From Eledone cirrhosa (lineage: Eukaryota), in assembly GCA_964016885.1 (NCBI GenBank), contig OZ024741.1:291028001-291092000 (forward strand): a DNA stretch of 64,000 bases, written 5' to 3'. The translations under genes were made by a program, and so were the position numbers. How positions within the stretch are numbered: position 1 is the stretch's first letter; every line of letters begins with the position of its first letter. Below, piece after piece: positions 39,954 through 56,813 of the stretch. The notes under the pieces are model-generated. The model was given only the letters and a program-made list of their open reading frames with translations. It ran no database searches and had not been told where the DNA came from.

Positions 39954-39955
<2 letters not shown>

Positions 39956-40148
39956 CGAAGGAAATGTGGTAAGGAACCAGGTGGACCATAACGCACCAAA
40001 GTACTCAATACTTAGGGTAGTAGAGTGGGTAATAGGAACGGGTAAGACACCGACGGCTGAGCTCAAGCCGTTTCGACGGCTAATTCAGGTCCAGAATTAG
40101 CCGTCAAAACGGCTTGAGCTCAGCCGTCGGGGTCCTACTCGTTCCTAT
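39954..40148 (-). mobile_element. (TA)n-flanked ~195-bp hairpin element, copy 1 (half-hammerhead)
   Basis: Inverted repeat 40032-40148; GAAA-CGGCT-TGAGCTC-AGCCG-TC motif; same boundaries as 56611-56813. Confidence 0.8.
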
Positions 40149-40347: not shown

Positions 40348-40406
<59 letters not shown>

Positions 40407-40695
40407 CAAATAACGAAACGAAATTAAATTTTGTTTCGTTTGTAACTCACTTTTGTATGACTGACGCTTAAACAATTAAGTTAAAGATGTACATCCATAT
40501 ATGTATACTGAAATACTAGTATGTATATGAATACACACACGTATACATATGTAGATGTACCAAGTTTTTTCCCTGGTCACTTTACTGTGAGTGGCCAGCT
40601 ATTCTGTATGTAAACACACAGACAAACCGGTTTTTAGAGTCATACTGGTTTTTGAGGAAACACCTTTCCTCTATTCTCCAGAAAGCCAGACAAGG

Positions 40696-40740
40696 AATAT
40701 TGAACTAGTTTCGTTGTTGTTACAACTCATCAGCAATATT
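40696..40740 (-). ncRNA. Minimal type I hammerhead ribozyme (inverted copy)
   Basis: Reverse complement of 41188-41232. Confidence 0.85.
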
Positions 40741-41187
40741 TACCTATCTTCCGGCCTCTCTAGAGAATTGTCTGGCTTTCTGGAGAATAGAGGAAAGGTG
40801 TTTCCTCAAAAACCAGTATGACTCTAAAAACCGGTTTGTCTGTGTGTTTACATACAGAATAGCTGGCCACTCACAGTAAAGTGACCAGGGAAAAAACTTG
40901 GTACATCTACATATGTATACGTGTGTGTATTCATATACATACTAGTATTTCAGTATACATATATGGATGTACATCTTTAACTTAATTGTTTAAGCGTCAG
41001 TCATACAAAAGTGAGTTACAAACGAAACAAAATTTAATTTCGTTTCGTTATTTGTTTTTATTGTCTCCGTTGAACCAGTACTTACTCACACTCTATGCAA
41101 ATTAGTCTGCCCACTACTAATTTTCATAGAAAAAGCATATAACGATATGTGCTTTTACGATTCTCTAGAGAGGCCGGAAGATAGGTA

Positions 41188-41232
41188 AATATTGCTGATG
41201 AGTTGTAACAACAACGAAACTAGTTCAATATT
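41188..41232 (+). ncRNA. Minimal type I hammerhead ribozyme
   Basis: AATATTG-CTGATGA-GTTG-taacaa-CAAC-GAAA-C-ta-G-T-T-CAATATT: 7-bp stem I, intact core, 4-bp stem II, palindromic ACTAGT stem III, predicted cut after 41225. Confidence 0.88.
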
Positions 41233-41475
41233 CCTTGTCTGGCTTTCTGGAGAATAGAGGAAAGGTGTTTCCTCAAAAACCAGTATGACTCTAAAAACCG
41301 GTTTGTCTGTGTGTTTACATACAGAATAGCTGGCCACTCACAGTAAAGTGACCAGGGAAAAAACTTGGTACATCTACATATGTATACGTGTGTGTATTCA
41401 TATACATACTAGTATTTCAGTATACATATATGGATGTACATCTTTAACTTAATTATATATATATATATATATATA

Positions 41476-41830
41476 AATGGAAAAAAATGAAACGAAATTT
41501 CCTTTCTCACTCACTCTTAGTACGGCTGTTACTTAAATATAAGTATGTACACGTACATACATATATGTATACAGACGTACAGTAGTATGTATATATATAC
41601 ATAAATGCACACACATATATATATGTACGTATGGATTTACCGAGCATTTATTATAATGCTCAGTTTATTTGTAAACAAACATCCTGGATTAAGCCGTACA
41701 GTGTTTAGCAACCATCGTTGCCCTTTTGTTCAACACTGACAAAGGAACGATGTACTAGTTTCAAGCTTATTAGCTATCGTCAGCACCGTATACCTTCCGG
41801 CCAGAAGATTGAACGTCTGAAAGTATATAC
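41476..41830 (-). mobile_element. PLE-like terminal repeat fragment, family 2
   Basis: Follows (TA)n; homologous to both arms of 46852-47438; carries an HHR. Confidence 0.8.
41747..41789 (-). ncRNA. Minimal type I hammerhead ribozyme (family 2)
   Basis: Minus strand ACGGTG-CTGACGA-T-AGCT-aata-AGCT-T-GAAA-C-ta-G-T-A-CATCGT; GUA cleavage triplet; U-U mismatch at the base of stem II. Confidence 0.78.
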
Positions 41831-41874
41831 TTTCCTTATGCATATTAACGGATGAGCAGCCTAATTTGCATATC

Positions 41875-41944
41875 GTGTGTGTGTGTGTGTATGTGTGTGT
41901 GTGGGTGTGTGTGTGTGTGGGTGTGTGTGTGTGTGTGTGTGTAG

Positions 41945-42473: not shown

Positions 42474-45332
42474 CATATATATATACACTGATATCTCTCA
42501 CATATATATAGTGGTATCTCTCACATATATATACTGATATCTCTCACATATATATAGTGGTATCTCTCACATATATATACTGACACCTCTCACATATATA
42601 TAGTGGTATCTCTCACATATATATATAGTGGTATCTCTCACATATATATACTGATATCTCTCACATATTTATAGTGGTATCTCTCACATATATATAGTGG
42701 TATCTCTCACATATATATACTGATATCTCTCATATATATATACTGATATCTCTCACATATATATAGTGGTATCTCTCACATATTTATAGTGGTATCTCTC
42801 ACATATATTTACTGATATCTCTCACATATATATACTGATATCTCTCACATATATATAGTGGTATCTCTCACATATATATACTGATATCTCTCGCATATAT
42901 ATAAATATATCTCTCACATATATATACTGATATCTCTCACATATATATACTGATATCTCTCACATATTTATAGTGGTATCTTTCACATATATATAGTGGT
43001 GTCTCTCACATATTTATAGTGGTATCTCTCACATATTTATACTGATATCTCTCACATATATATACTGATATCTCTCACGTATATATAGTGGTATCTCTCA
43101 CATATATATAGTGGTATCTCTCACATATTTATAGTGGTATCTCTCACATATATATACTGATATCTCTCACATATATATACTGATATCTCTCACATATATA
43201 TAGTGGTATCTCTCACATATATATAGTGGTATCTCTCACATATTTATAGTGGTATCTCTCACATATATATACTGATATCTCTCATATATATATACTGATA
43301 TCTCTCATATATATAGTGGTATCTCTCACATATATATACTGATATCTCTCACATATATATACTGATATCTCTCACATATATATATAGTGGTATCTCTCAC
43401 ATATTTATAGTGGTATCTCTCACATATATATAGTGGTATCTCTCACATATATATACTGATATCTCTCACATATATATACTGATATCTCTCACATATATAT
43501 AGTGGTATCTCTCACATATATATACTGATATCTCTCACATATATATAGTGGTATCTCTCACATATATATACTGATACCTCTCACATATATATAGTGGTAT
43601 CTCTCACATATATATACTGATATCTCTCACATATATATACTGATATCTCTCACATATATATAGTGGTATCTCTCACATATTTATAGTGGTATCTCTCACA
43701 TATATTTACTGATATCTCTCACATATATATACTGATATCTCTCACATATATATAGTGGTATCTCTCACATATATATACTGATATCTCTCGCATATATATA
43801 AATATATCTCTCACATATATATACTGATATCTCTCACATATATATACTGATATCTCTCACATATTTATCGTGGTATCTTTCACATATATATAGTGGTGTC
43901 TCTCACATATTTATAGTGGTATCTCTCACATATTTATACTGATATCTCTCACATATATATACTGATATCTCTCACATATATATAGTGGTATCTCTCACAT
44001 ATATATAGTGGTATCTCTCACATATTTATAGTGGTATCTCTCACATATATATACTGATATCTCTCACATATATATACTGATATCTCTCACATATATATAG
44101 TGGTATCTCTCACATATATATAGTGGTATGTCTCACATATTTATTGTGGTATCTCTCACATATATATACTGATATCTCTCATATATATATACTGATATCT
44201 CTCATATATATAGTGGTATCTCTCACATATATATACTGATATCTCTCACATATATATACTGATATCTCTCACATATATATATAGTGGTATCTCTCACATA
44301 TTTATAGTGGTATCTCTCACATATATATAGTGGTATCTCTCACATATTTATAGTGGTATCTCTCACATATATATAGTGTTATCTCTCACATATTTATACT
44401 GATATCTCTCACATATATATACTGATACCTCTCACATATATATAGTGGTATCTCTCACATATATATAGTGGTATCTGTCACATATTTATAGTGGTATCTC
44501 TCACATATATATACTGATATCTCTCACATATATATACTGATATCTCTCACATATATATATAGTGGTATCTCTCACATATTTATAGTGGTATCTCTCACAT
44601 ATATATAGTGGTATCTCTCACATATTTATAGTGGTATCTCTCACATATATATAGTGTTATCTCTCACATATTTATACTGATATCTCTCACATATATATAC
44701 TGATACCTCTCACATATATATAGTGGTATCTCTCACATATATATAGTGGTATCTGTCACATATTTATAGTGTTATCTCTCACATATATATACTGATATCT
44801 CTCACATATATATACTGATATCTCTCACATATATATAGTGGTATCTCTCACATATATATAGTGGTATCTCTCACATATTTATAGTGGTATCTCTCACATA
44901 TATATACTGATATCTCTCATATATATAGTGGTATCTCTTACATATATATACTGATATCTCTCACATATATATACTGATATCTCTCACATATATATATATA
45001 GTGGTATCTCTCACATATTTATAGTGGTATCTCTCACATATATATATACTGATATCTCTCGCATATATATACTGATATCTCTCACATATATATACTGATA
45101 TCTCTCACATATATATATACTGATATCTCTCACATATATATACTGATATCTCTCATATATATATAGTGGTATCTCTCACATATATATACTGATATATTTC
45201 ACATATATATATACTGGTATCTCTCACATATATATACTGATATCTCTCACATATATATATACTGGTATCTCTTACATATATATAGTGGTATATCTCACAT
45301 ATTTATAGTGGTATCTCTCACATATATACACT
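42474..45332. repeat. 23-bp satellite/minisatellite, TATCTCTCACATATATATA[GTGG|CTGA], about 120 units
   Basis: Two interspersed monomer types; rare variants recur at 897-bp and 278-bp periods. Confidence 0.97.
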
Positions 45333-46855: not shown

Positions 46856-47438
46856 GAATATAAGTATGTACACGTACATACATATATGTATACAGACGTA
46901 CAGTAGTATGTATATATATATATACATACATGCACACATATATATATGTACGTATGGATTCACCGAACATTTATTATAATGCTCGGTGTGTTTGTAAACA
47001 AACATCCCGTATTAAGCCGTAGTGTCTAGCAACCATCGTTGCTCGTTTGTTCAACACTGACAAAGGAACGCTGTACTAGTTTCGCCGTAGTGTCTAGCAA
47101 CCATCGTTGCTCGTTTGTTCAACACTGACAAAGGAACGCTGTACTAGTTTCAACTTGAAACTAGTACAGCGTTCCTTTGTCAGTGTTGAACAAACGAGCA
47201 ACGATGGTTGCTAGACACTACGGCTTAATACGGGATGTTTGTTTACAAACACACCGAGCATAAAAATAATTTTCGGTGAATCCATACGTACATATATATA
47301 TGTGTGCATGTATGTATATATATATATACATACTACTGTACGTCTGTATACATATATGTATGTACGTGTACATACTTATATTTAAGTAACAGCCGTACTA
47401 AGAGTGGGAAATGAAATTTCGTTTCATTTTTTCCGTTT
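46852..47438. mobile_element. (TA)n-flanked palindromic copy of PLE-like family 2 with an internal 68-bp duplication
   Basis: Apex at 47154 (GTACTAGTTTCAA-C-TTGAAACTAGTAC); 47016-47083 repeated at 47084-47151. Confidence 0.88.
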
Positions 47439-56610: not shown

Positions 56611-56612
<2 letters not shown>

Positions 56613-56808
56613 CGAAGGAAATGTGGTAAGGAACCAGATGGACCATAACGCAACAAAGTACTCAATACTTAGGGTAGTAGAGTGGGTAATAGGAACAAGT
56701 AGGACCCCGACGGGTGAGCTCAAGCCGTTTCAGCGGCTAATTCTGGACTCAGAGTCCAGAATTAGCCGTCGAAACGGCTTGAGCTCAGCCGTCGGGGTCC
56801 TACTTGTT

Positions 56809-56813
<5 letters not shown>
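56611..56813 (-). mobile_element. (TA)n-flanked ~200-bp hairpin element, copy 2 (half-hammerhead)
   Basis: Inverted repeat 56689-56813, apex CTGGACT-CAG-AGTCCAG; GAAA at 56771, GTC at 56791-93. Confidence 0.82.

Follow-up and report, generated by a model that had tools for sequence, protein, structure and literature searches.

Paired end sites in two-armed arrays of a non-coding 467-bp hammerhead repeat from Eledone cirrhosa

Described systems and the locus

Non-LTR retrozymes, their link to PLEs and the one-sided tails of PLE insertions are already published (PMC7229834; bioRxiv 10.64898/2026.07.22.740005). In coral, mussel and axolotl, retrozymes are expressed in circular form according to PMC7229834, which leaves open the priming (DNA target or small RNA), the driver (LINE or PLE) and the return of the circle to the genome. 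Circles as templates for more-than-unit copying have already been proposed (PMC4209133). Insertions of endonuclease-bearing PLEs comprise a partial tandem, an inverted 5'-truncated copy and a 'tail' on one side (PMC3846280, PMC8557442), and the cause of the inverted copy, and of the tail being on one side only, is stated as open in PMC8557442. Purified PLE protein, a predicted dimer, cleaves AT-rich DNA on both strands and extends both, has two internal start sites that bound the genomic tail and inserts in vitro with no need for hammerhead cleavage (PMC11167929). Non-autonomous Chlamys elements, such as MRC1, resemble the 3' ends of autonomous elements and belong to a clade for which no canonical hammerhead is reported (PMC8557442). 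A young, abundant family offers countable footprints that tie together the two questions that these papers leave open, the return of the circle and the one-sided tail. In L1 twin priming, both target strands prime cDNA, and the outcome is an inversion with a microhomology joint; its second priming site varies, and there is no overlap between the arms.

The window analysed here is the whole stretch of 64,000 nucleotides from E. cirrhosa (contig OZ024741.1 of GCA_964016885.1, positions 291,028,001 to 291,092,000). The locus is one insertion, in two head-to-head arms, of an abundant non-coding 467-bp hammerhead repeat. Monomer coordinates M1-467 are defined as window 40768-41234, and S (M219-229) and T (M290-294) are the two end sites of the family. 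The features of the locus are as follows.

40354-40402, no strand: left (TA)n target tract, the last AT being common to tract and arm end
40400-40771, minus: left arm of 0.8 monomer (M390-467 + M1-294), whose outer end falls on the T start site M294
40680-40751, minus: left-arm type I hammerhead, predicted cut between 40703 and 40702
40768-40771, no strand: centre joint of the arms, an overlap of 1 exact base, or of 4 with one mismatch
40768-41234, plus: full monomer M1-467, 34.7% GC, no ORF, strongly folded as a modelled circle
40987-41061, plus: 'tail' between the family-wide end sites S and T, containing a covarying hairpin
40987-40992 (S site, M220-225) and 41061 (T site, M294), plus: bounds of the tail
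41188-41232, plus: canonical type I hammerhead with palindromic ACUAGU helix III, predicted cut between 41225 and 41226 (GUU)
41235-41454, plus: incomplete unit (M1-220), the second of the right arm, whose outer end falls on the S start site
41454-41475, no strand: right (TA)n tract, doubling as the T-end tract of the adjoining family-B copy
41473-41875, minus: copy of sister family B (430-bp monomer) with a GUA hammerhead core at about 41783-41753; context, outside the insertion

The earlier note on this DNA had described a plus-strand tandem of about 1.5 monomers, a near-identical inverted arm that carries a second hammerhead and crosses the monomer junction, and flanking (TA)n tracts around a unit without coding capacity, and the locus agrees with this description in each respect. 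The plus arm (40768-41454) is M1-467 followed by M1-220, with a 467-bp period and 100% identity between the units. In the minus arm (40400-40771), M390-467 and M1-294 are present in reverse complement, identical at 371 of 372 positions, with the one mismatch at the joint. TA runs lie on both flanks of the unit 40400-41454, and in the circularised monomer no stop-free frame is longer than 62 codons. An ORF with RT and GIY-YIG is absent from the unit, and none is joined to its ends. A simple deletion derivative, continuing elsewhere into an ORF at the position of 41061-41159, was a possibility raised in advance; it is seen in no fetched copy, and the number of arm ends running into an ORF among the fetched family-A copies is 0. 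Since the right (TA)n tract is common to the T end of the family-B copy, the unit sits in a TA run at the end of that element.

Two short motifs lie upstream of the plus-strand hammerhead. ATGCAAAT, at window 41096-41103, is retained in most A and B monomers, and CCGGAAG, at 41173-41180, is present in family A only. We take the former to be octamer-like and the latter to be ETS-like, and the two may form an internal promoter or have a purely structural role. A 23-bp tandem repeat of 123 copies with 89% matches occupies window 42479-45328. No tRNA lies within the window, and its Rfam miRNA matches were rejected as low-complexity TA/CA sequence with scores far below the gathering scores.

Like the metazoan non-LTR retrozymes (PMC7229834; bioRxiv 10.64898/2026.07.22.740005), the repeat consists of ORF-less, low-GC tandem units some hundreds of base pairs long, each with a canonical type I hammerhead, and is dispersed in thousands of copies. 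Further points of likeness are a TSD of more than 4 bp, a GC content below 50%, a strongly self-paired predicted circle and the presence of PLEs in the genome. The unit of 467 bp is just above the range of 150-450 bp in PMC7229834 and within that of 51-972 bp in bioRxiv 10.64898/2026.07.22.740005. No homologous PLE terminal repeat was found here beside the 50 GIY-YIG loci screened, and the latter source likewise has none for 33 of its 57 Xenopus families. Two-armed arrays with fixed paired ends are present here but are described neither in the main text of PMC7229834, where 'inverted' occurs 0 times, nor in the available text of bioRxiv 10.64898/2026.07.22.740005. RNA circles and cleavage have been shown for the published metazoan retrozymes and are predicted for the present family.

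The insertion also resembles those of PLEs (PMC3846280, PMC8557442, PMC11167929) in its head-to-head arms within one TSD, its AT-rich or (TA)n targets and its two end sites with an extension at one end only. The family differs from them in having no ORF and in forming multi-unit arrays in either arm. Its tail measures 69-74 nt (58 nt in family B) compared with 30-40 nt in PLEs, and pairing of the two ends is near-strict (42/43), while for PLEs it is called 'optional' or 'often at one end' in these papers. The Chlamys element MRC1 is likewise a non-autonomous PLE dependant with multicopy head-to-tail insertions (PMC8557442); unlike the clade of MRC1 as reported there, the repeat has a canonical hammerhead. 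Plant LTR retrozymes, with a type III hammerhead in their LTRs and a 4-bp TSD, are different from the present family, which has a type I hammerhead, tandem arrays and a TSD of about 12 bp. As in L1 twin priming, both strands appear to prime and the joint is one of microhomology, but the second site is fixed here and both arms copy the same sequence repeatedly.

The family, its hammerhead and its predicted fold

An exact 30-nt core has 5,212 matches in the 3.0-Gb genome, compared with 0 for the reversed control, so the matches are not due to chance. Hammerhead cores with the same helix III number 40,658 genome-wide (control 23), and the first 100 cores listed all belong to the family of this locus (family A), to a stem II variant of it or to the 430-bp family B. 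Family-A copies are dispersed over many contigs as head-to-tail arrays with locus-specific haplotypes. The mapped sample consists of 61 loci, 36 picked by similarity and 25 collected one after another over the initial 56 Mb of contig C1; its arrays have up to 14 units per arm, and a further locus, L163, has 30.7. Family B is collinear with family A over the whole circle and has a monomer of 430 bp (variants 422-502 bp), a GUA cut and a U-U at the base of stem II. Its copy at window 46857-47432 has two arms, one ending at S and the other at T, and contains an internal duplication of 68 bp. Judged from these copies, family A is an abundant, young non-LTR retrozyme family, itself new, of a class that is already published. 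Two other loci, L208 and L209, are short perfect palindromes around a hammerhead-like core with an ACTAGT helix and represent another family.

Both arms of the insertion match the type I hammerhead model HH9 of Rfam, at 41177-41248 on the plus strand and 40680-40751 on the minus strand, with a score of 37.7 bits (E 2.9e-7) that is below the gathering score of 52 bits. The predicted cut follows the triplet GUU, which is also the usual cut triplet of family A. Helix I has 7 bp and a further stem past an internal loop, helix II has 4-5 bp, and helix III is the 2-bp palindrome ACUAGU. The minimal hammerhead is defined by the absence of helix III and loop 3, a long helix II (7-8 bp) and a short helix I (PMC4209133). 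With helix III present, helix II of only 4-5 bp and helix I extended beyond its 7 bp, the predicted ribozyme belongs, by these definitions, to the canonical metazoan type I class, which depends on dimers, and not to the minimal PLE class. The earlier note was right in its type I assignment and in placing the predicted cut between 41225 and 41226, but the 'minimal' in its name for the motif has to be dropped.

The catalytic core contains 0 variant cells among 540, compared with 162 among 16,806 (0.96%) over the whole monomer, which gives an estimated expectation of about 5; only loci not selected on the core enter this count. In stem II, a U-A pair is swapped to A-U in 39 of 317 units. Among 16 A and B monomers, compensatory changes are found in 27 of 88 consensus pairs, compared with no more than 4 in slid controls, in a structure derived from the same A/B alignment on which the pairs were counted, and since most of the changes come from the single A/B split they represent few independent events. 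The circular minimum free energy of -145.7 kcal/mol is far below that of 60 shuffles (-91.5 +/- 5.0; z about -10.8), and the fold includes stem I and stem II. In silico, the self-paired circle leaves the hammerhead free to fold, and two hammerhead copies co-fold via helix III. On the preferred reading, the transcript would cleave itself and give rise to a monomeric RNA circle. Against this count the predominance of GUU as the cut triplet and the in vitro assays of Xenopus retrozyme dimers, of which eight of nine were uncleaved and one was cleaved (bioRxiv 10.64898/2026.07.22.740005).

Pairing of the end sites

The 61 loci contain 47 head-to-head junctions in which both arms have at least 40 nt. 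Both outer ends lie on a defined site in 43 of these, and one end lies elsewhere in the other 4. The 43 consist of 42 S+T pairs, one S+S pair and no T+T pair (binomial P = 1e-11 against an independent 50:50 choice), and in the position-ordered sample all 14 pairs are S+T. The ends are complementary, too, at four further loci with stub arms of 11-26 nt. The arms of the sole S+S case (L049) have two haplotypes that differ at 9 segregating sites, so this exception probably represents two events. What the family predicts is a single S start and a single T start per event. Either arm may be the longer one, T in 28 junctions and S in 14, and L163 has 30.7 units on its S arm compared with 0.7 on its T arm. 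Fold-back onto the first cDNA is therefore excluded, since the S arm can be 40 times longer than its partner.

TA runs are present on both flanks in 36 of the 47 insertions. Where the target is readable (L037, L046, L059 and L070), a TSD of 12-15 bp surrounds the whole unit. The ends of L046 are shifted to M290 and M229, with 5-6 bases that match the target. The arms overlap by at least one base at 33 of the 47 centre joints, as roughly measured from BLAST ends.

The same pairing is found in other families. Family B has S+T in all five clear cases, and among the PLE families that carry an ORF and a hammerhead, adjacent pairs read by eye are S+T in 3/3 (F3) and 6/6 (F5). The rule does not hold for every family, since 5 pairs of PLE family F1b have their two ends on one and the same site. 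A mini-palindrome family in (TA)n, seen in 19 pairs, combines a long and a short arm in 14 of 14 scorable pairs. Mini-palindromes at window 39955-40148 and 56612-56813 have arms of 135 and 58 nt and a 77-nt tail, and no hammerhead was seen in the 135-nt arm. In the openly accessible main texts searched, strict S+T pairing on rolled, two-armed retrozyme arrays was not found.

Template, rival explanations and driver

The distance between units is 0.0019 in the same arm, 0.0030 in opposite arms and 0.0271 at other loci. The two arms differ at fewer than two segregating sites in 42 of the 47 insertions; in the remaining 5 they differ at two or more, and one RNA molecule therefore cannot explain all insertions. 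Rare alleles are shared by both arms in 16 of the 47 loci (28 alleles). Distinct majority monomers are found in 22 of the 25 loci with at least three full units, and the units within a locus can be identical throughout, as in L080 (18/18), L066 (16/16) and L037 (10/10). These sequences point to a monomer bottleneck at most generations.

The cut junctions between units are free of indels in 333 of 335 cases. The inner ends are distributed evenly over the length of the monomer (KS p = 0.23), with 9 of 94 in the interval from -5 to +25 of the cut and 6.2 expected. The start of the first monomer 9 nt past the cut, to which the earlier note drew attention, is thus true of this locus but is not a signature of the family. 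A closed circle predicts both the lack of a pile-up of inner ends at the cut and indel-free junctions, and both are observed, while a cut linear RNA would be expected to give run-off ends or scars at the cut.

Some arrays are not uniform. In L060, one arm switches after five units, between M225 and M315, to the haplotype of the other arm, either by a template switch or by a second insertion joined in phase. Variant blocks with a period of three units occur in one arm only of L094 and L052, and L163 has 19 distinct units among its 30. A satellite of at least 97 units at C1:95640000-95687200 (L227-L231) consists of a 470-bp subfamily of A in a 6-unit higher-order repeat; the subfamily is 89% identical to A, has a GUC cut, and its short opposite arm ends at T. 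This satellite is a retrozyme insertion turned satellite. A periodic hammerhead cluster of 2,817 bp, considered as a PLE tandem, was rejected because it is the 6-unit higher-order repeat of the same satellite. The period-3 blocks, the diversity within L163 and the satellite indicate that arrays can also grow as DNA after insertion. The family also shows how a ribozyme unit can become palindromic satellite DNA, and it offers a compact cis-element for multi-copy insertion.

The insertions are probably the work of a PLE RT-endonuclease that primed both strands of a staggered (TA)n break at two fixed sites on a likely circular monomer. This is in line with the proposal, made from the locus itself, of a non-autonomous hammerhead unit copied more than one round, most likely by PLE machinery, and the arrays, the two-site ends, the (TA)n targets and the TSDs all favour it. 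An array would be transcribed, and adjacent hammerheads would pair via ACUAGU and excise a monomer, which would be ligated into a circle. A PLE protein dimer would then cut both target strands, about 12 bp apart, and one subunit would start at M294 and the other at M220-225, with 2-6 nt of microhomology fine-tuning the choice. Each RT would complete between 0.03 and many turns of the circle, displacing strands as it goes, and the two cDNAs would be joined at short microhomologies and filled in. Afterwards, some arrays would expand further as DNA. A more general form of this mechanism, for which we see the case for and against as evenly balanced, is that the arrays record an obligate two-site, double-primed rolling-circle integration by a PLE dimer on a ribozyme-made RNA circle, with one active site per tail end and two RTs working at once, and that the same rule would account for the inverted copy, as well as the tail on one side, in PLE insertions at large and would seed palindromic satellites of at least 45 kb. 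The similarity of the bulk start sites on both strands in vitro (PMC11167929) counts against the pairing model.

Other templates would account for part of the evidence. If a PLE performed twin priming on long, uncleaved linear read-through transcripts, the hammerhead would be an inherited passenger and the arrays would be homogenised and lengthened as DNA. A homogeneous source array would also yield identical units, inner ends on uncleaved RNA need not stop at the cut, DNA-level expansion is seen, and hammerhead mutants still insert in vitro (PMC11167929). We nevertheless regard this explanation as unlikely: a per-locus haplotype in all units of both arms, distinct in 22 of 25 loci, is hard to fix in this way, the rare alleles common to both arms (28, at 16 of 47 loci) are equally difficult for it, and the invariant core and the compensatory stems are left unexplained. 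Somewhat less likely still is the use of two RNAs, one per subunit, in the form of circles or cut monomers of neighbouring units, possibly paired through ACUAGU, with tandems formed by rolling or by precise end-to-end template jumps. Two RNAs fit the two haplotypes in 5 of 47 insertions, the switch within an arm of L060 and the helix III co-fold of two hammerhead copies in silico, and they avoid the difficulty that overlapping arms on one molecule require one RT to displace the product of the other. However, 42 of 47 insertions have a single haplotype, and jumps at the cut should leave indels or haplotype switches there, whereas 333 of 335 junctions are clean and the switch in L060 is between M225 and M315, not at the cut.

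The idea that a hammerhead lies by chance in satellite DNA, in a rolling-circle element of DNA or in an assembly artefact is largely refuted and keeps only a very small share of the probability, even though some arrays do behave as satellites. The fixed paired ends are common to ORF-bearing PLEs, TSDs are present, and the centre joints are unique. An artefact, which the earlier note had named as a way in which its reading could fail, is very unlikely, since the same arrangement is seen again at 47 junctions, whose centre joints differ, and since minus-to-plus joints and TA loose ends at 41061 are also present in contigs from a separate run. Priming at two fixed sites on a likely circular monomer by a PLE protein remains the preferred reading.

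The screen for a driver comprised 10,597 first-look GIY-YIG candidates, 150 scored candidates and 50 screened loci, the last being compared with the use of blastn, a profile and shuffled local alignments. Beside these 50 loci, the screen revealed no autonomous element whose terminal repeat is homologous to A or B, and the best similarities have p of about 0.02, uncorrected, which is not significant. Among 60 loci with other loop lengths, similarity to PLE protein is found at one locus only. A retrozyme-PLE chimera suspected at L055 was rejected because its 47-nt piece is not a PLE end site and 30 of 30 copies read through it. Three PLE-like fragments gave no Pfam families. Runs X4-X6, which are labelled as other organisms and contain the monomer, were rejected as evidence of expression or horizontal transfer and are read as trace host DNA, since family B and a LINE-like ORF with no relation to it also occur in them at about the same proportions as in X1. 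In X5, the monomer is present as a single 497-nt contig whose end joins its start.

Several PLE families of the genome have features of their own. Families F1, F1b and F2 contain hammerhead-like motifs, read by eye, in which U3 and A8 replace C3 and G8 and helix III is CCGG or ACGG. A hammerhead-like motif lies about 1090-1115 nt past the ORF stop in L128, with similar ones in L143 and L097. The two end sites of F2 are about 70 nt apart, and a long frame in L127 stays open over 938 codons. Loci L233-L262 represent a young PLE family, two-armed and with 775 near-exact motif copies, that has arms kilobases apart and a microsatellite-rich 3' region.
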